A program made the translations under genes and the position numbers. A stretch of 64,000 nucleotides of DNA, from the IMG/VR virus record IMGVR_UViG_2884693830_000001, positions 1,459-65,458 of that record; one strand, given 5' to 3'. Numbering within the stretch: the stretch's first letter is position 1; each line of letters opens with the position of its first letter. Shown here piece after piece: positions 21,798-42,492 of the stretch. The notes under the pieces are model-generated. The model searched no databases, was not told the origin of the DNA, and saw only the letters and a program-made list of their open reading frames with translations. Source of the DNA: a virus.

Positions 21798-22900
21798 GCC
21801 GACTCGCAGCCGCCGCCGTCGAAGACCTGGCCGAGGCCGAGGACGCCAACGACTGGGACCAGGCCGCAGAGCAGGTGTTCCCCGACCTCTACCCCTGCCC
21901 TGGGGAGGAGTGCAGGAAGACGGGCAAGCTGCAGAAGGTCAACAGGACCGGCAGGATCCGCAAGCACAAGGCGAACAAGGGCGACGTGCTGCCGTGCACC
22001 GGCTCCGGCGCTCCGATCCTGACTGCGCGCATCCCGCACCGCAGCAAGTCCGGCTTCTACAAGGACCCCGAGTCCGGGGTGCTGCTGCGGTCGGTGACGA
22101 CGATCCTCAACCAGGGGTCGGCGCACGAGGGGCTGGTCTACTGGGCGGCCAAGGTCACCGCCGAGACCGCGATGGACAACGCGTTCGCGATGCTCGACGC
22201 CGCCCGCACCGAGGAAGGCCGGGCCGAGTTCATCAAGTGGCTCAAGCAGGAGCCGAACCGCCGTCGTGACGAGCGGGCCGACGTCGGCTCGGCGGTGCAC
22301 AAACTCGTGGAGTGCAAGATCCTCGGGGAGCCCGCCCCGGTGCGACTGATGGCCAACGAGGATCTCAAGCCGTACATCGAGCACTTCAACCGGTGGGTCG
22401 CCGAGTGGGAGATCGACTTCGAGGCGTCGGAGATGGTCGTCGCCCACTACGACGACAAGTACGCCGGGACGCTCGACTACCTGTTCCGGTCCCGGCCGCT
22501 CGCCCGCAAGCTCGGCGTCCCCGCCGACACCATCTTCCCGGGCGACACCAAGACGGGCGGCACTCTCAACGGGACCACGTACGACGGCAGCGTGCACGGC
22601 GTCTACCCGGAGGCCGGCCTGCAGATGTCCGCCTACCGCAAGGCGCCGTGGGGGTGGGAACGCGACGGTGAGCGTATCGAGCTGCCGCCCCGGCACGACG
22701 TGGGCGTGATCTTGCACCTGCGCCCGGAGGGCTACAACCTCTACCCCGCTCGCTGCGGCGACGACATGTACGAGATCTTCCAGACCATCCGCCGCGTCGC
22801 CGAGTTCCACACCGGCTTGTCCAAGAGCGTCATCGGTGAGCCGCTGACCCTCGACGACGACGGCACTGAGGACCCCCAGACCACGGAGGAGGCAGCCTGA
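21794..22900 (+). CDS. PD-(D/E)xK exonuclease (RecE/RecB-like)
   Basis: SVTTIL, GSAVHKLVE, SEMVV, YAGTLD, GDTKTG, LQMSAY. Confidence 0.85.
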   Translation: MSRLAAAAVEDLAEAEDANDWDQAAEQVFPDLYPCPGEECRKTGKLQKVNRTGRIRKHKANKGDVLPCTGSGAPILTARIPHRSKSGFYKDPESGVLLRSVTTILNQGSAHEGLVYWAAKVTAETAMDNAFAMLDAARTEEGRAEFIKWLKQEPNRRRDERADVGSAVHKLVECKILGEPAPVRLMANEDLKPYIEHFNRWVAEWEIDFEASEMVVAHYDDKYAGTLDYLFRSRPLARKLGVPADTIFPGDTKTGGTLNGTTYDGSVHGVYPEAGLQMSAYRKAPWGWERDGERIELPPRHDVGVILHLRPEGYNLYPARCGDDMYEIFQTIRRVAEFHTGLSKSVIGEPLTLDDDGTEDPQTTEEAA

Positions 22901-24615
22901 TGGGCGGGCGCATCATCGACCGGCAGCACCGGCTCCGCACGATCGGCCGGATCCGGCTCGGCACGTTCGAGGGCAGGCCGAAGGCGTCGGAGTTCTTCAT
23001 CCCCACCTCGGAGTTCGAGCACTTCATCCGGCAGATGGCCGACATCTACGGCGGCAAGGTCGAGCAGTGGAAGCCGCAGGGCGACGGCGGCATGCAGTGG
23101 CGGCTCATGAACGAGGACCTGACCTCCATCGAGGCGATCATCCCGCCCGGCCGTGACCCGCTCGACCAGGCGTACGAGAAGTGGTCGCGCGGTGGCAAGC
23201 AGGCCCGCTGCAACGGTGAAACCGTCGAGAACCTGGGCGGCCGTCCCTGCGTCTGCAAGGCGCAGTGGGGGCCACGCTTCTGGGAGCAGGCGCCGCCGCA
23301 GCAGGCATGCAAGCTGCACACCCGCCTCAACATCTGGATCCCGGAGATCCAGGACATCGGGGTGTGGCTGCTGGAGACCAAGGGCGCGAACGCCGGAGCC
23401 GAGTTGCCCGGCTTCGTCGACATGATCCAGGGCATGTTCGGCACCAAGGTCGCCGTCCCGATCAGCCTGTGGCTCGTGCCCCGCACCGGCCGAGAAAAGG
23501 GCAAGCTCAAGCACTACACCAAGGTCGAGATCGCGATCCGGGGCATGAACGCCATGCAGGCGGCCTCCCGCATCATGGCCGCCGCGCCCGAACACGCCGA
23601 GCTCAGCGCCGGATCGTCGGAGGACCGGCTGGCGATCGAGTCGGGCAAGCCCGAGCAGACCGACTACATCGCGATGATCGGCGCCGCGCAGACCCGCGAC
23701 ACGGTGATCGAAGTGTGGCGGCAGGCCAAGGCTGACCGCGACGCGTGGATGACCAGCGGCGAGCAGATCGAGGCGGAAGCGGCCAGGCGGGTCAAGGAGA
23801 TCGAGCGACTGGCCGAGCTATGGAAGGAAGTCGTCACCGCCTGGGACGGCGGCGAGATGGACGCGCTGCACAGCGCGTTCACGGACTTTTCCCGCGGCCG
23901 CCGCATCGAGGAAGCGACAGTTGCGGAGCTGAAGGCGTTCCTCGTACACATCCAGCCCAACGAGCGCCCGGCCACCGAGGAGGCCCCGCCGGTGCAGGCG
24001 CCCGCCGGCCGCAGCACGGAAGACGTCGCAGTGCCGCCGGATGACGAGATCGAGGACGCTGACGTGGTCGACGCCGAGGTGGTCGACGACCAGCCGGTGG
24101 CGAAGGAACGCCTCACCCGCCTCAACATCATGATCGGTGAGCGCGGCATTACCCCGCACACCGGCAAGGGCAGCACCGCGGCGAACAAGGCAGCCAAGGC
24201 GGCGTTCCTGAACGACACCGTCAAGCGGCTGGACGGCCCGCCCATCGAGTCGACCGCGGACCTCACCGAGAGCGAAGCCGACCTGGTGATGGCGCGCCTC
24301 AAGAGCATGCCGATCACCCACCCGACCAAGCCCAAGCAGGCCACCCGCCAACAGGCCGCCGACCAGCAGGACCCGGCCGCGCGCCGCGCCTACATGCTGA
24401 ACCTGTTCGGCCAGCTCGGCATCAAGGACCGGGAAGACGTCCTGCGGGACATCAGCATCATCACCGGCTCCAACGTGGACACGGCCGCTCCGCCGACCCC
24501 GCAGCAGGTCCAGGACTCCATCGACGTCCTAGAGTCCGCCAGCGGCGACGTCGCCACCTACGACGCGATGATCGCGCAGATCCAGGAAGCCCGCGCTCAG
24601 CAGGCCACGAACTGA
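22900..24615 (+). CDS. Gp3-like (recombination directionality factor-like) protein with a long C-terminal extension
   Basis: IGRIRLG, RCNGE, CVC...CKLHTRLNIWIPEIQDIGVWLLETKG.NAGAELPG. Confidence 0.7.
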   Translation: MGGRIIDRQHRLRTIGRIRLGTFEGRPKASEFFIPTSEFEHFIRQMADIYGGKVEQWKPQGDGGMQWRLMNEDLTSIEAIIPPGRDPLDQAYEKWSRGGKQARCNGETVENLGGRPCVCKAQWGPRFWEQAPPQQACKLHTRLNIWIPEIQDIGVWLLETKGANAGAELPGFVDMIQGMFGTKVAVPISLWLVPRTGREKGKLKHYTKVEIAIRGMNAMQAASRIMAAAPEHAELSAGSSEDRLAIESGKPEQTDYIAMIGAAQTRDTVIEVWRQAKADRDAWMTSGEQIEAEAARRVKEIERLAELWKEVVTAWDGGEMDALHSAFTDFSRGRRIEEATVAELKAFLVHIQPNERPATEEAPPVQAPAGRSTEDVAVPPDDEIEDADVVDAEVVDDQPVAKERLTRLNIMIGERGITPHTGKGSTAANKAAKAAFLNDTVKRLDGPPIESTADLTESEADLVMARLKSMPITHPTKPKQATRQQAADQQDPAARRAYMLNLFGQLGIKDREDVLRDISIITGSNVDTAAPPTPQQVQDSIDVLESASGDVATYDAMIAQIQEARAQQATN

Positions 24616-35301: not shown

Positions 35302-36736
35302 GTTCACGTCCAGGGAGATGGTGTGCGGGTGATCTAGCCCATGCTGTGGTGTGGGAGAGATCCATGTGACAAGAGACGGCCACTCCGTAATCCTTCGATT
35401 CGCTCATATCAACACGAAGGGGACGAAGTGGCCGTCAATGACATTGTGCCCGCTGCCGGGGAGTACTTGGAAGACACCCTCGCCGCGGCGAGCCCGGACC
35501 TGCTCCGGACGATGATCCGCGAGTTCGCCCAGCGGATGATGGACGCCGAGGTCGAGCAGCTGTGCGGCGCCGGCTACGGCGAGGTGTCCAGCGAGCGGGT
35601 CAACACCCGCAACGGCTACCGCGCCCGGCCGTGGGACACCCGCGCCGGAAGCATCGAGCTGGCCGTGCCCCGGCTGCGGCAAGGCTCCTACTTCCCGGAC
35701 TTCCTGCTGGACAAGCGACGCCGGGCCGAGCGGGCGCTGACCAGTGTGGTGGCGACCAGCTACCTGCTCGGGGTGTCGACGCGGCGGGTGGAGAAGCTGG
35801 CCGAGGCGATGGGCATCACCTCGCTGTCGAAGTCGCAGGTCTCGGCGATGGCCGCCGAACTCGACGCGATGGTCGAGCAGTTCCGGTCCCGGCCGTTGGA
35901 CGCCGGCCCGTACACGTTCGTCTGGATCGACGCGCTGACCCAGAAGGTCCGTGAGGGCGGCCGGACGGTGAGCGTGCATGCCCTGGTCGCCACCGGCGTC
36001 AACGCCGACGGGCAGCGGGAGATTCTCGGCCTGGACGTCGTCTCCAGTGAAGATGGCGCGGGCTGGCTGGCGTTTCTGCGCAGCCTGGTCGCGCGCGGCC
36101 TGTCCGGCGTGCTGATGGTGACCTCCGACTGTCATGCCGGGCTGCGTGACGCGATCGCCTCCACCTTGCCGGGCGCGTCCTGGCAGAGATGTCGGACGCA
36201 CTACGCGCGGAATTTGATCACGCGCGTTCCGAAGTCGGCCCAGCCGTGGGTGGCCACCATGCTGCGCACCGTTTTCGAGCAGCCCGACGCCGAGTCGGTC
36301 TACGCCCAGCATCGTCATGTCGTGCAGGCGCTGGAGGCCAAGTACCCCAAGGCGGCCGAGCATCTGGACGAGGCCCGCGACGACATTCTGGCCTTCGCCG
36401 CCTTCCCCAAGGCCGTCTGGCGTCAGACATGGAGCAACAACCCCCAGGAGCGCCTGAACAAGGAGATCCGCAGGCGGACCGACGTGGTCGGCATCTTCCC
36501 CAACCGCGACTCGATCATCCGCCTCGTCGGCGCAGTGCTGGCCGAGCAGAACGACGAGTGGACCGAGCAGCGCCGCTATATGGGGCTGGAGGTCCTCGCC
36601 GAGTGCCGCAAGAACACCGCATCACCCGATCTCGAAAACAAGACAAACGATGCTAAAGTGACTACTGAGGCGATAGCTTCCTAATAGTCACCGATTACGG
36701 GTGACCTTCTCAAACACCACTTCCCTGGGCGCGGCC
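35302..36736 (+). mobile_element. IS256-family insertion sequence (1435 bp) with an 8-bp target duplication
   Basis: GGTTGGTG duplicated at 35294-35301 and 36737-36744; imperfect terminal IRs sharing CCAGGGA..TGGTGT. Confidence 0.92.
35428..36684 (+). CDS. IS256-family (mutator) transposase
   Basis: RNGYR, GVSTRRV, FVWIDA, VTSDCHAGL, WQRCRTH, SNNPQERLNKEIRRRT; start inferred from GAAGGGG RBS. Confidence 0.93.
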   Translation: MAVNDIVPAAGEYLEDTLAAASPDLLRTMIREFAQRMMDAEVEQLCGAGYGEVSSERVNTRNGYRARPWDTRAGSIELAVPRLRQGSYFPDFLLDKRRRAERALTSVVATSYLLGVSTRRVEKLAEAMGITSLSKSQVSAMAAELDAMVEQFRSRPLDAGPYTFVWIDALTQKVREGGRTVSVHALVATGVNADGQREILGLDVVSSEDGAGWLAFLRSLVARGLSGVLMVTSDCHAGLRDAIASTLPGASWQRCRTHYARNLITRVPKSAQPWVATMLRTVFEQPDAESVYAQHRHVVQALEAKYPKAAEHLDEARDDILAFAAFPKAVWRQTWSNNPQERLNKEIRRRTDVVGIFPNRDSIIRLVGAVLAEQNDEWTEQRRYMGLEVLAECRKNTASPDLENKTNDAKVTTEAIAS

Positions 36737-37471: not shown

Positions 37472-37738
37472 GTGGAAGTTCTAGCGCTTCTGGTGTTGAT
37501 CGGTCTGGTCATCTGGGCGTTGGACGGCTCGGGCAGTGGTTCCGGCAGTGGTTCCGGCAGTAGATCGGTCGGCAGCACTCGCAGCGCCAACAGGTACGCG
37601 AGGCGGGTCCAACGGAAGCGCGACCGGGAGCTTGACAACCTTGTGAGGAAGTACCGCGAGTCCGAGGGTGGCGCCGGGTATGGCGGGGGCCGGGGTGATG
37701 GAGGCTTCGGTGGAGATGGGGGCGACGGCGGCGACTGA
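37472..37738 (+). CDS. Small membrane protein with Gly/Ser repeats
   Basis: GGAGG RBS, N-terminal TM, GSGSGS and Gly-rich tail. Confidence 0.55.
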   Translation: MEVLALLVLIGLVIWALDGSGSGSGSGSGSRSVGSTRSANRYARRVQRKRDRELDNLVRKYRESEGGAGYGGGRGDGGFGGDGGDGGD

Positions 37739-37817
37739 CCGCTCTTCACCAGCTCAACAGGTTTCCGATGGAAGTATGGGCCGGTAACGATCTGTTGCTG
37801 GCCTGCGATTCCCTGTC

Positions 37818-38246
37818 ATGCCGGGTTTCCAGTTCGTAGCGTCTCTGGTGGATTCTCTGGCCTGGCCTGTCGCTGTGGTGGTGGCGGTTGTGGCGTTGCG
37901 TCGGCCGTTGGCCGCGGCGATGGGGCGGGCGAAGCGGGTAGAGGCCGCGGGGGTCGCACTGGAGTTGGCCGAGGTGGAGCACGCTCGGGAGAGCGTGGAG
38001 CAAGACTTGGCGCAGGCCAGCGCAGAGGGTGCATCTCTTGGGGCGGCCGAGGTGGATGAGTTGGTAGGGAAGGCCGCTGACTTGGGGTGGTATTTGGGGC
38101 GCATGATGCCAGAGCTTTCGCCTGATGTGGTGGTGGATCGGTCGGGCGACAAGCCGGTGGTGCGCTCGGAGACTGAGAAGCGGATCAGAAAATTGTTGGC
38201 ACGGGACTTCGAGCCGACTCACCCACGTTGGCGGACATGGTTGTAA
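37818..38246 (+). CDS. Membrane-anchored hypothetical protein
   Basis: LAWPVAVVVAVVALRRPL TM followed by a coiled coil. Confidence 0.6.
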   Translation: MPGFQFVASLVDSLAWPVAVVVAVVALRRPLAAAMGRAKRVEAAGVALELAEVEHARESVEQDLAQASAEGASLGAAEVDELVGKAADLGWYLGRMMPELSPDVVVDRSGDKPVVRSETEKRIRKLLARDFEPTHPRWRTWL

Positions 38247-38254
38247 TGCAACCT

Positions 38255-38288
38255 ATAACTCACGATAATCCCTCTTATCGTGAGTTAA
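38255..38288. other. lox-like recombination site (13-8-13)
   Basis: ATAACTCACGATA-ATCCCTCT-TATCGTGAGTTAA; arms are inverted at 12/13 positions; about 100 bp upstream of a Cre-like recombinase. Confidence 0.8.
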
Positions 38289-38392
38289 GATGATCTCTGA
38301 GAGCGCATGATCACGACACTCTGGAACTCGCCCGGTGCACCCACGCCGGGCGTCCGACCAACCCGGAACACGCAAGCGAAAGGACTAGCGGC

Positions 38393-39418
38393 ATGTCGAC
38401 CCCCGATGCCGTGCACCCCGAATCCAGCACAGTGGGTGCACTGGAACTCCATAGCGGCGGAGAGTTGGAGACCGCAGACGATGCCGCCCGCTGGGCCCGG
38501 CTCGCCGAGCTCGACCAGGCGGCAGAGGCGTTCGAACCCCGCGCCGACAACACCCTGCGCTCATACGCGTCCGACTGGCGAGTGTGGGAACGGTACGTCG
38601 CCGCGGCGGGCATACCGCTGGAGGCCGGCACACCGGGAGCCTTCCTCGGGTTCGTGATCTGGCTCGGCAAGGAGGGCAAGGCGCCGTCGACGATCCAGCG
38701 GAACCTGTACGGCGCGGCGGTGTCCCTGCGGGAACGCGGTGTCGCAGTGCACCCGGACGGCCCGAAGAAGGCGAAGAAGGCGGTCGACGCGCTGGCCCGA
38801 ATGCTGGCCGAGGCGGGGGAGCAGCGGGGCCGCGGCAAGGCCCCGGCGTTGACGGTGATGCAGCTGCGCGCGATGTCGAAGGCGTTGCCGGACACGTTGA
38901 AGGGGCTGCGTGACCGGGCGATCCTCACGGTGGGGTTCGGCATGGCGGCGCGCCGGTCGGAGCTGGCGAACCTCCGTGCCCAGGACGTGGCGGTGACGGA
39001 GAAGGGTCTGCAGGTGTTCGCCCGGTACGGCAAGACCGGCGCCCGCTCGCCCGCGATCAAGAAGGGTGAGAACGAGTGGACGTGCCCCCGGCGCGCCTGG
39101 GTGGCGTGGGCGGCGGCTGCGGACCTCGACCCGGACGGGCCTGCATTCCTGCGCTTCAACCGGCACAAGATGCTGGGCCCGATCACCGCGCAGGGCATCG
39201 GGATCGCCGTCACGGCGGCGGCCGAGGCGGTGGGCTTGGACGGCGTCACCGGGCACAGCATGCGTGCCGGCCTCGCCACGGCGGCGCGGGAGGCCGGGCA
39301 CGACTATCGGACGATCGCTGTCCAGGGCGGATGGGCGCCGAACTCCACCGCGCTGCACGAGTACCTGCGGATCGTGGACCAGTGGGCGGACAACGCCACG
39401 GCGGGAATCGGGATGTGA
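38393..39418 (+). CDS. Cre-like tyrosine recombinase/resolvase
   Basis: N-terminal NTLRSYASDW; catalytic R (ARRSEL), K (GKTG), H-x-x-R (GHSMRAG), W (GGW), Y (HEYL). Confidence 0.9.
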   Translation: MSTPDAVHPESSTVGALELHSGGELETADDAARWARLAELDQAAEAFEPRADNTLRSYASDWRVWERYVAAAGIPLEAGTPGAFLGFVIWLGKEGKAPSTIQRNLYGAAVSLRERGVAVHPDGPKKAKKAVDALARMLAEAGEQRGRGKAPALTVMQLRAMSKALPDTLKGLRDRAILTVGFGMAARRSELANLRAQDVAVTEKGLQVFARYGKTGARSPAIKKGENEWTCPRRAWVAWAAAADLDPDGPAFLRFNRHKMLGPITAQGIGIAVTAAAEAVGLDGVTGHSMRAGLATAAREAGHDYRTIAVQGGWAPNSTALHEYLRIVDQWADNATAGIGM

Positions 39419-39909
39419 GCGCGCCCAGCTGTCACTGTTGACACTTTTCGAGGGTGGGACCAGCTGCTCAAGCTACCCCGCGCGCCATGGCGATGAGCGC
39501 AGAAGGCACAATCCTGCCACGACGGTAGCCGCACTCGCCAAGGCCGTTGTCCGGCCAGTCCTTGTGGACCAGCCGACTCCTCTAGGCCCCCTGATGCTCT
39601 GGCGGCACTGACCCGAGGGCCGTTCCGGCGCCACTCCTCGGAGCAGCCACAATCGCTCAAAGTGTGTGCGAGGGCACAACCTTCGAGTCGTTCCGCTGCT
39701 CAGCGGCAACAAGGCGGCATATATTGGCGCCCGATTCAAAGCGCGTACATCAGTAACGGCCGCCTCATTGTCGCTGGTCGAGAGCGCCCGCCATGTCCAT
39801 CACAAGAATGGCGGTTAAACCACCCTAAGTAACTTGTCAAGCCTTGAAATTGCCCTGGTCAAATACGATGATCCTTCGTGGCCATGCCTCGTCAAGCGGA
39901 AGGATTCTT

Positions 39910-41136
39910 GTGATTAGACGGACACGTTCTGTGTTCAGGATCGTGTTAGCCGCGATCGCCTCGTCCATCATTCTGGCGGGATTACCGGCGACTGCGGCTC
40001 AAGCCCTACCTCCCGATGCCGATGAGATCGCACAGAGAATCCGGCAGGGCAACGCTTCGATCCGCCAAGACACCAGCGCCGGAAAGAAGGCCAGTTCCAA
40101 GCGCAAGGTAAGGTATCTGCAATCGTGCGATGAACTGCGCAAACAGCGTAAAAACTCATCGACGCGAAGCAAGAAAAAGGTCGCATGCAGTACTGGCCCG
40201 AAGATGAGGACAGCAGCCGCCAATCCCGAGGGGGGTGTACCGCCCGGTGTTCCTGACTGGTGCAAGGACGCCGGCCTAGGGTGGTATGCGGCCACCCGCT
40301 TCAACCAGTGCACTTGGCGAACTGAAGGCATCGAGTGGTGGGCTGGCGACTTCGTCGTCGGAGGCATCGACTTCACCCTTTACAACGACATCGTAACCGT
40401 CTGGAATGAGGGGGCGTTCATCTTCGGTGATCACGTCTGGGCCTACAACGAATGGGGGGAATGGGAGCCGGATATGCTCCTTGCCTCCGTCGCGGTCTGC
40501 TCAGCCAACTGCACCATCATAGCTGCGCCACCCAACAAGGACCTTCAGCTGCGTACCTGGATACAATTCAACACCGTAATGCGGTCCACCGTTGCCGCTA
40601 ATGCTGTCGAGACACTGGATCCGGCATCGGGGCTCATATGGGATGGACCGGCATCGGACGATGACGTGGAGTACGTCACCGAGGGCCCGTCCGACCTCCG
40701 CTGCGACAACGGGCTACTCAAGGGCACCGATAACGAGGGATGCGTCATGGCGAACGCCTGGCCTACCCTGACATACAAGGGAAGCGAATGGGACGAGATA
40801 GCACCCCACATAAGCCGATCTCAAGCAGCTGGGTCTCCTGGAACACCGGGAGTCGAGCCTCTTCATCGAATGTACGACGATGCTGATGCCGCGCAGAACC
40901 GCAGGGATGCGTGCAGCTTCATTACTGGCTCCCGTCCGCCCAACTCAGACTGCGACGAGTACCCCATGGCCCACACGTACGAGGGTGCCTACACCTGTGG
41001 CTGTGATGACTTCACCGTAGAATGGGTCGACTCAAGTCAGAACCAGCTGGCCGGACAACGGTACGGTGACTTCGGCCGTGAACAGAGGCTTCTGGACAAC
41101 GATCCGTTCTTCGTCTACGCGGATCTCAGCTCGTAG
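39910..41136 (+). CDS. Secreted protein with a C-terminal NucA/NucB-type nuclease domain
   Basis: Signal peptide ending AAQA; LHR, NRRDAC, CDEYPMAHTYEG, QNQLAG; lower GC. Confidence 0.8.
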   Translation: MIRRTRSVFRIVLAAIASSIILAGLPATAAQALPPDADEIAQRIRQGNASIRQDTSAGKKASSKRKVRYLQSCDELRKQRKNSSTRSKKKVACSTGPKMRTAAANPEGGVPPGVPDWCKDAGLGWYAATRFNQCTWRTEGIEWWAGDFVVGGIDFTLYNDIVTVWNEGAFIFGDHVWAYNEWGEWEPDMLLASVAVCSANCTIIAAPPNKDLQLRTWIQFNTVMRSTVAANAVETLDPASGLIWDGPASDDDVEYVTEGPSDLRCDNGLLKGTDNEGCVMANAWPTLTYKGSEWDEIAPHISRSQAAGSPGTPGVEPLHRMYDDADAAQNRRDACSFITGSRPPNSDCDEYPMAHTYEGAYTCGCDDFTVEWVDSSQNQLAGQRYGDFGREQRLLDNDPFFVYADLSS

Positions 41137-41152
41137 ACAGTAGGATTCCCTT

Positions 41153-41686
41153 GTGGGTAGCGCTGACACGTCATTTCGATCGCATGTCCGGTTGTCCTAC
41201 CATCAGATTTACCTCTTGGACCCGGATGAACTTCTGCCTCAGCCGCCACCGGCCTTCCCCAACGGGCTCATCGGTTTGGACGACGAACCGGATGGGGCGA
41301 CCATCCTCACCGGCATTGCGATGGGCTGTGTGGACATGACAGTGCAACTCGCCAGGAAGGGCCCCCCTGTAGACCTTGACTCGTGGGAGGAAGTGGTTGA
41401 GGTCTCCATCGAGTCCACAACCGGATCGCTGTTTGTATGTGGGCTCGATGGAGACCTTCCGGAGCATCTGCCGAACTTGGCTACAGAAGGCGCAGGATTC
41501 TATCGGTTGCGAGTGCACGCTACCGGTCGCGACACCAACGTCAATGGGATAGCCGAGACTCCAACTGAACACTATTTGATCACTGCGTGGCCAGCCCCTC
41601 CCGAGGCGGAGATCGTATACAAAGCGTCTGACGCTTACGGTGAAGAGGTTCGTCACCGGCCGCGTAGACGCCCACCTGGCACGTGA
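41153..41686 (+). CDS. Putative immunity protein for the upstream nuclease
   Basis: Immediately downstream, acidic, no signal peptide; YHQIYL, WEEVVEVSI, YRLRVHATGRD, EHYLITAWP. Confidence 0.65.
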   Translation: MGSADTSFRSHVRLSYHQIYLLDPDELLPQPPPAFPNGLIGLDDEPDGATILTGIAMGCVDMTVQLARKGPPVDLDSWEEVVEVSIESTTGSLFVCGLDGDLPEHLPNLATEGAGFYRLRVHATGRDTNVNGIAETPTEHYLITAWPAPPEAEIVYKASDAYGEEVRHRPRRRPPGT

Positions 41687-42492
41687 CTTGTTCACCGACT
41701 ACTGCGGTAGCACACTGACCGAGGCCAAGTCCAAGCCCCAGCGCTGCTCACCAGGTTCCATGGTGGAAACCGCCGCTGGCTGCTCCGCTCGGCCCCGATG
41801 GTCTGGATGGAGTTTGGCATCGGGGAACCGCCACGTGGGTTTCAGCCGAGGCGAGTCTCGCACCGAAGGTGGCGAATTGATTCCGCCTGGATGGCACTGG
41901 CATCCCCTCGGCTGTCCGGCGCACTTGCCAGCCCACCACGACCGAGTTGTGATCGTCACCGACGAGCAGTCCCGGCCACGCTGGCTGCCGTCGAACGGCT
42001 ACGGCTGCGGCAGCGAGATACGGACCGACACGTGGCCCCGCAGTGCAGCGGCTCCTACGGGGCTTGGCATCACGGGACAGCGCTCCCAGCCCGGGGCGTG
42101 GCCATCAAGCGATGTCTGCATCAACAAGATCACCCCCGTCTCACCGGTTTCCGGCGTGGCGTGCTTGCGGTACTTGACAACAATGCATATGCTGCGCGCC
42201 AGAGTGGGATACGCATGCCAAAGTGCTTGCGTGTTCGCATATGCGCGTCTCTGAGCCCACGTGTGTCGCCCGTTCGCGATGCCCTCCATGGCTCTCCGAC
42301 CCCCCAAGAGTCGATCTTTCCTGAGGCGCTCTGAGACGCGCACACACATTGGAAGGCCCCGCCCCCGCAGATGGGACGGGGCCTTCCCCATGTCCACCCG
42401 GTCCCCGGCGCGGCCCTGCGCCGCACGGGGGAGGCGCGGAAAACGAGCCGGGGGCCGGGTCACCTTCACCCCTCACCGCCAGGAGGCCCCTC

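Follow-up and report, generated by a model that had tools for sequence, protein, structure and literature searches.

We propose that a perfect palindrome just upstream of a Cre-type tyrosine recombinase gene, in a prophage of an actinomycete, is the target of that recombinase. The two would form a Cre/lox-like module of the MrpA/mrpS type that serves multimer resolution or circularisation and may also be autoregulatory; we put the probability of this reading at roughly 65%. The window, by which we mean the whole 64,000-nucleotide stretch of DNA analysed here, lies within a phage. Downstream of the recombinase come genes for terminase, an SPP1-type portal and a MuF-like minor capsid protein; upstream of it the phage encodes a helicase, an exonuclease and a protein with a Gp3-like directionality-factor domain, and an amidase endolysin lies further right. 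An earlier note on this DNA had assigned it to an actinophage, and this was borne out: the element is a phage, carried as a prophage in a Nonomuraea-type actinomycete. The features at the centre of the argument are these (positions in the window):

38255..38288, no strand assigned: lox/mrpS-like site within the limits given by the earlier note, 13-8-13, 12/13 arm symmetry
38256..38268, plus strand: left arm, TAACTCACGATAA, perfect complement of the right arm
38269..38274, plus strand: presumed crossover (overlap) region TCCCTC, 6 bp; 7 spacers among 9 loci, arms fixed
38275..38287, plus strand: right arm, TTATCGTGAGTTA, inverted repeat; one substitution in relative L008
38288..38392, plus strand: conserved leader, with a -10-like TAnnAT hexamer, two TGATC boxes, a block ending GAAAGG (ribosome-binding site) and ATG (from the alignment)
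38393..39418, plus strand: Cre-type (MrpA-family) tyrosine recombinase, 341 aa, Pfam Phage_integrase 1.5e-10

A perfect 13-6-13 palindrome precedes the recombinase gene

The earlier note had described a 34-bp 13-8-13 site upstream of a Cre-type recombinase, and we located it at 38255-38288. The 13-8-13 register can be read, with its 12/13 arm match, but the site is better described as the perfect 13-6-13 inverted repeat of 32 bp that a repeat finder returned at 38256-38287, with arms TAACTCACGATAA and TTATCGTGAGTTA. Its central TCCCTC is asymmetric and pyrimidine-rich on the sense strand of the recombinase gene. The site starts 9 bp past the stop codon of an ORF at 37818-38246, and 105 bp separate its end from the recombinase ATG at 38393. 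As the earlier note had said, it is an AT-rich site in a GC-rich genome: its GC content is 38%, against 67% for the DNA it lies in and 0.66-0.70 in its surroundings.

The site is also alone. Allowing up to 2 mismatches, the arm 13-mer occurs at only two places in the window, where 0.13 would be expected, and neither a second full site nor a half-site turned up when the 95-kb record and 10 kb of its left flank were searched. The earlier note had proposed a search for a second copy in the full replicon and the host chromosome. Run on the record and on host chromosomes, this search found the site single-copy: it is intact and occurs once in each of six host genomes, with no second site at up to 3 mismatches of 24.

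Jelicic et al. (2023; PMC10250229) define Cre-type targets as palindromes at most 1 kb from the gene, with 13-15-bp arms, an 8-bp spacer and at most 2 asymmetries. In these terms the window site is a 13-8-13 palindrome with 1 asymmetry, 105 bp from the gene, and a GATA motif adjoins its 8-bp spacer, as in the published search criteria (PMC10250229).

The recombinase resembles Cre in sequence, profile and predicted fold

Residues 1-23 of the recombinase are disordered and unconserved; the source annotation begins the protein at TTG 38465. Searched as a single sequence, the protein has Cre as its best PDB match, with both domains aligned (E 3e-9). A 25-member family profile returned Cre at E 2e-19, followed by XerA (2e-11) and XerD (4e-9). 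An AlphaFold (AF2) model built on the family alignment reached pLDDT 86, and in Foldseek its top 32 matches were all Cre or Tre (TM 0.63-0.74, 18-21% identity), whereas lambda Int, IntI, Tn1549 Int and XerA scored TM 0.55 or less, query-normalised. Model and fold comparison revealed no arm-binding domain.

The earlier note had read an R-K-HxxR-W-Y catalytic set with Trp, as in Cre, and every one of these residues aligned, as did a Glu: R187, E190, K214, H288, R291, W314 and Y324 correspond to Cre R173, E176, K201, H289, R292, W315 and Y324. Apart from the Trp, which is W in 19 and H in 6 of 25 homologues, the catalytic residues are invariant in all 25. Membership of the Cre type, as laid down in Jelicic et al. 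2023 (PMC10250229), concerns length, fold and catalysis; the window protein has 341 aa (range 300-400), a predicted two-domain Cre-like fold and the full catalytic set. Against the NCBIfam XerC, XerD and XerS models it scored about 20-40 bits, where the equivalog cut-offs are 267-335, which places it outside those families. The assignment to the Cre type thus holds by sequence, profile and predicted fold.

A relative of known function: MrpA/mrpS of SCP2*

Is a pair of this kind already known? According to PMC3218068, which cites Warth, Haug and Altenbuchner (2011, Arch Microbiol 193:187), SCP2* MrpA is a tyrosine recombinase that resolves plasmid multimers, and PMC4685060 describes recombination of mrpS-bearing plasmids by MrpA in E. 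coli. The mrpS oligonucleotide (PMC4685060 supplement) places the site 16 bp upstream of mrpA (SCP2.07c); in SCP2, mrpS is a 15-6-15 inverted repeat with the centre GATAA-CGTTCC-TTCTC. An hhalign comparison of MrpA with the family gave a probability of 100%, E 2e-44 and 32% identity over 293 columns, spanning residues 48-341 of the window protein and 52-371 of MrpA. By BLASTP, the window recombinase and MrpA are 36% identical over 205 aa (E 3e-23). Both have a GGW motif and a GIG[LM] C-terminus, and MrpA's best PDB relative is also Cre.

The sites are alike too. Each is an inverted repeat with a GATAA-N6 core and a 6-bp pyrimidine-rich centre of the same polarity, placed just upstream of the gene; the arms, however, agree at only 9/13 positions, and mrpS lies 16 bp from the start codon whereas the distance in the window is 105 bp. 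The replicons differ as well: SCP2* is a conjugative plasmid of Streptomyces coelicolor with parA, whereas the window replicon is an integrating prophage in which neither ParA nor ParB was found. At the level of sequence, full-length homology, the shared motifs and Cre as the common best relative identify the window pair as an MrpA/mrpS-type, Cre-like module. The earlier note had announced a new Cre/lox-like pair. The pair is real, and each part of that reading that could be computed held, but its kind was already known from SCP2* MrpA/mrpS.

A second close system is Cre/loxP of phage P1. Cre is the closest solved structure, has the same catalytic residues including Trp and, like the window recombinase, has a single phage-borne site next to its gene. 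The loxP site shares the 13-8-13 reading and the TAACT...ATA arm layout; the earlier note had counted a 9/13 match between the left arm and the loxP arm, and the arithmetic is correct. The window palindrome is, however, one base longer on each side (13-6-13), and the two proteins share no more than 18-21% identity. The P1 prophage is a plasmid and has partition genes; the window phage integrates via a serine integrase. For this reason, and as neither ParA nor ParB turned up in the record, the analogy that the earlier note drew with P1, where Cre/loxP resolves plasmid-prophage dimers, is only partial.

A further relative, gp036 of the Streptomyces phage-plasmid pZL12/phiZL12, annotated 'integrase/recombinase' (NC_013420), is 43% identical over 86% of the protein, and a site centred on GATAA-GCTCAC-ATATC lies 43 bp upstream of gp036 in this phage of about 90 kb. 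The pZL12 element is kept as a plasmid and its parA and parB are named (PMC4487206), whereas the window phage integrates.

Xer systems (XerS/difSL, XerH/difH, XerCD/dif) likewise combine a simple tyrosine recombinase with a 6-bp centre and a role in dimer resolution; the inner ATAA...TTAT of the site is shared with E. coli dif, and XerS and XerH, like the window recombinase, have their site next to the gene. Xer structures, however, match the window recombinase far worse than Cre does, and Xer is chromosomal whereas the window system is phage-borne.

Conservation of the arms in sister prophages

Eight homologues are close (85-89% identity); they come from genomes of Nonomuraea and Streptosporangium and from one IMG/VR provirus. 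All eight are encoded by syntenic prophages, and the site is present in 8/8. Across the nine loci (the window and these relatives), the 24 inner arm bases have 99.1% pairwise identity, compared with 53-59% for the 100-bp flanks of the site and 66% for the central 6 bp. The 12 inner bases of the left arm are unchanged in every related prophage. In the spacers, position 6 is invariably C. One relative, L009 (= L078, N. fuscirosea), has lost about 325 bp from within its recombinase gene, yet keeps perfect arms, which speaks against the preferred reading. The sequence of the site is under purifying selection. Fixed arms around a free centre fit recognition of the arms by a dimeric DNA-binding protein that has a crossover region, and not merely a hairpin, because a hairpin in RNA would tolerate compensatory changes in the arms.

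The palindrome travels with the recombinase family

More distant homologues in other actinomycetes, at 38-64% identity, are each preceded by a version of the site, at a distance of between 16 bp and about 1.1 kb. Their arms vary, for example to TGACTCATGATAA or TAGCTCGCGATAA, round a constant GATAA-N6-(T/A)TATC core; a Streptomyces subgroup has a 7-bp centre instead of 6 (GATAA-N7-(T/A)TATC). Palindrome score alone was unspecific in GC-rich loci, so sites were sought by core motif and by PWM against a 360-420-kb background; by chance, the core motif matches about once per 100 kb of related GC-rich DNA. About 21 of the 24 family loci examined carry such a site. These scans gave no convincing site in three loci (L030, L065 and L066), and the candidate in L064 scored inside the background range.

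With tblastn, we found the family on 74 actinomycete plasmids and on the phage-plasmid pZL12, and the core motif precedes the gene in pZL12 and in several of the plasmids sampled. The genes round the site vary from locus to locus. A 401-genome sample of the class contained 3 genomes with a homologue at E<=1e-40, too few for statistics.

Where else do the arms occur? A scan for the exact 12-6-12 arms in one genome from each of 185,579 species returned 8 loci, of which 6 are prophages from this set of nine; the scan found no exact arms outside a prophage or plasmid-type context. The other two are gammaproteobacterial, in the chromosome of Microbulbifer sp. MCCC 1A16149 and in an Oceanospirillaceae MAG. 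Both have identical 13-14-bp arms directly upstream of a Cre-type recombinase that is 29% identical to the window protein, has Cre as its best PDB relative and stands opposite a KfrA-like gene. As in the window, the arms enclose a centre of 6 bp; spacers, phylum and the low-GC, plasmid-like context are different. The orthogonality suggested by the earlier note would accordingly extend to loxP, rox and probably mrpS, but not to every natural system, given the identical arms in these two gammaproteobacteria.

The shorter 9-6-9 core occurs at 45 loci across many phyla, 13 of them with an adjoining family recombinase. Only about 18 of the 45 have a recombinase-type or KfrA neighbour; about 9 hits to the core would be expected by chance. 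In Desulfobacterota, genes for fusions of a tyrosine-recombinase domain with TOBE (molybdate-binding) domains (L087:4566-5797 and L098:3505-4883) adjoin a TCACGATAA-N6-TTATCGTGA palindrome, and the L098 fusion also adjoins a molybdate transporter gene. These fusions are likely recombinase-derived regulators; we take them to resemble the TunR class. The 9-6-9 loci, these fusions included, suggest that the DNA code is older and wider than the window phage and can serve regulation alone.

On plasmids, phage-plasmids and prophages, and even in different phyla, the palindrome accompanies this family of recombinases. Since neighbouring genes differ and the co-occurrence crosses phyla, the recombinase is the site's only constant partner.

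Integration by a separate serine integrase

The Cre-like gene is the only tyrosine recombinase gene in the record, and it lies in mid-prophage with phage genes on either side. No serine recombinase was detected within the record (PF07508, PF00239). In the phage's own 11.27-Mb host chromosome, however, a 536-aa large serine recombinase is encoded 5.3 kb left of the helicase, outside the record; there, at the left end of the prophage, its gene adjoins TetR, MarR and FAD-type host genes. Four other genomes share synteny that continues left past the record to a conserved 3.6-kb block, which in a Streptosporangium chromosome encodes a 537-aa large serine recombinase. In our extract of the region the serine integrase gene occupies L063:3130-4740, and the IMG/VR record starts about 3.6 kb to its right, so that the record is incomplete at its left end. 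The Gp3-like directionality-factor domain forms the N-terminal part of a 571-aa protein (window 22900-24615). The serine integrase and the Gp3-like factor explain integration, and the Cre-like recombinase is not the prophage integrase. Nor does its site behave as an attP of the lambda type: the gene is in mid-prophage and the site is intact, with no split into attL and attR.

A stable plasmid state is not evident from the gene content of the window phage, since the record contains no match to ParA (AAA_31) or ParB_N, and it is in such a state that multimer resolution matters most. Relatives found on plasmids include a 94-kb Microtetraspora plasmid and pZL12, and another Nonomuraea element has been reported both integrated and as a multicopy circle (PMC5431353).

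Several observations on the wider element are recorded here. In both complete chromosomes the prophage sits about half-way along the sequence record, at 5.55 of 11.27 Mb in its own chromosome and at 5.33-5.42 of 10.30 Mb in G001; a search of the complete Streptosporangium chromosome for a dif-like pattern gave nothing clear. An IS256-family transposase gene at 35341-36684 (Transposase_mut 1.5e-135) belongs to an insertion private to the window genome (35300-36780), and in all eight related prophages the sequence that corresponds to about 35296 is joined directly to that of about 36784. At the right end of the record, outside the window, genes for a GntR-type regulator, an SsgA-like protein and a RecD2-like helicase (G000 83300-95254) recur, beyond a variable gap, in every related element and probably belong to the element. 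In the tail region, also outside the window, two segments of about 1.8 kb (G000 70400-72250 and 74050-75900) are 66-69% identical to each other; they appear to be paralogous segments of tail or fibre genes.

Regulation, integration and cargo as alternative roles

The site lies at the start of the recombinase operon. The -10-like hexamer of the conserved leader directly abuts the right arm, and a promoter-like match (38241-38269) overlaps the site. In L007 and L008 the same leader stands ahead of inserted cargo genes, which are followed by the recombinase. As the leader downstream of the right arm would drive the operon and cargo genes, an additional operator role for the site is likely, and part of its conservation could be regulatory.

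Might the palindrome be an operator and nothing else, bound by the recombinase for autoregulation or by another phage regulator, with the recombinase acting at some other site? The hexamer at the right arm, the leader with its ribosome-binding site and the promoter-like match all suit this idea, as do the SCP2* site only 16 bp from the start codon and the recombinase/TOBE fusions, presumably regulators, that adjoin the same core palindrome beside a molybdate transporter. We nevertheless think it improbable. The equivalent site of SCP2* is a recombination substrate, as described in PMC4685060; no other conserved candidate site accompanies the gene, whose catalytic residues are all kept; and in L005, L007 and L010 cargo genes separate the site from the recombinase gene by 1.7-2.5 kb.

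The palindrome could instead be a spare attP, through which the phage or a plasmid form would integrate into a chromosomal look-alike site in other hosts; in this lysogen, where the serine integrase did the work, it would have stayed unused. Enzymes of the Cre type also catalyse integration, and the authors describing pSLE1, which is pZL12-like, speculated that its integrases allow chromosomal insertion (PMC4487206). A second site is nevertheless missing from the six host genomes at up to 3 mismatches of 24, and exact arms always fall in prophage or plasmid-type contexts among the 185,579 species genomes. The spacers of close relatives are also unlike one another, and the protein has no arm-binding domain. 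With no partner site and with spacers that differ between sister phages, an attP role is unlikely: differing spacers are tolerable between identical sister copies, but not with a shared attB. We rate this explanation somewhat below the operator one.

Still less probable is a cargo-capture platform, in which site, promoter and recombinase would work as a small integron that collects cassettes at or near the site. It is true that variable genes (DUF7574, GNAT and others) stand between leader and recombinase in 5/9 relatives, that a variable segment lies directly 3' of the gene, and that repeats of the gene's 3' end bracket the inserts of L004 and L009. There is, however, one site per genome, cassette-borne partner sites were not found, and the inserts do not start at the site (that of L007 begins about 110 bp to its right).

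The inserts themselves are varied. Those upstream of the gene (L005:2290-4000, L007:1400-3380, L010:1520-4000 and L008:3220-4000) encode DUF7574 proteins, a GNAT acetyltransferase and hypothetical proteins; because they lie between site and gene, the site is 0.5-2.5 kb from the recombinase in these four loci. On the 3' side, window 39420-42148 is a variable segment of lower GC (0.60) with an ORF that encodes a NucA/NucB DNase domain (39844-41136), and relatives have unrelated inserts of 1-1.4 kb in its place. Pentapeptide-repeat protein inserts of 1.3-1.45 kb with a 15-nt periodicity occupy L004:4961-6330 and L009:4546-6066; their flanks are 74-79-bp direct repeats of the recombinase gene 3' end, stop codon included.

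An intrinsic terminator of the upstream gene (37818-38246) can be set aside: as RNA the site would form a strong hairpin with a 13-bp stem 9 bp past the stop codon (folding z-score -4.5 for an 85-nt stretch), but the stem is 31% GC and is followed by AGATGATC, there is no T-run, no terminator-like call was made in 37700-38600, the arm sequence is conserved and not merely its pairing, and the upstream gene is missing or different in L005, L010 and all distant relatives.

Proposed mechanism and significance

The reading we prefer, in which the palindrome is the target of the adjacent recombinase, would work as follows. One recombinase monomer would occupy each 13-bp arm, a pair of sites would come together in a tetrameric synapse, and strand exchange would take place over the central 6 bp, on the model of Cre/loxP and MrpA/mrpS. 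The pair would be supplied by sister or concatenated circular phage genomes, or by an injected genome whose ends are terminally redundant, so that multimers or linear redundant genomes become monomer circles in the extrachromosomal phase of the phage; integration is left to the large serine integrase. An occupied site would probably also damp transcription of the recombinase operon, whose start it adjoins. We infer binding, catalysis, the cleavage position and the biological role of the window pair. Multimer resolution or circularisation, as with MrpA and P1 Cre, is the role that is left, since a single site cannot drive inversion or excision and an attP is unlikely.

Could the code be older still? 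Tentatively, and with the odds against it, we suggest that the (TAAC)TCACGATAA arm with a 6-bp centre is an ancient code of a cross-phylum Cre-type clade, with members on actinomycete phages and plasmids and on plasmid-like elements of proteobacteria, and even of the TOBE regulators, that the centres of the sister prophages (7 variants in 9) make mutually incompatible sites for one enzyme, and that the module serves circularisation or monomerisation and not plasmid maintenance.

If active, the pair would be a recombination tool native to high-GC DNA, Cre-like and free of accessory factors, for genome engineering in actinomycetes and in general. Its arms are unlike those of loxP, rox and mrpS, and the sister prophages offer natural spacer variants for heterospecific sites. 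PMC10250229 reports predictions of about 500 Cre-type recombinase/target pairs with a success rate of about 50%. As hundreds of such pairs have been predicted and several validated, and a member of this family has already been characterised, the gain is incremental. For the biology of these phages, an MrpA-type resolution module known from a conjugative plasmid would be a stable core part of a family of serine-integrase prophages of about 100 kb, and the DNA code of its site is conserved across phyla.
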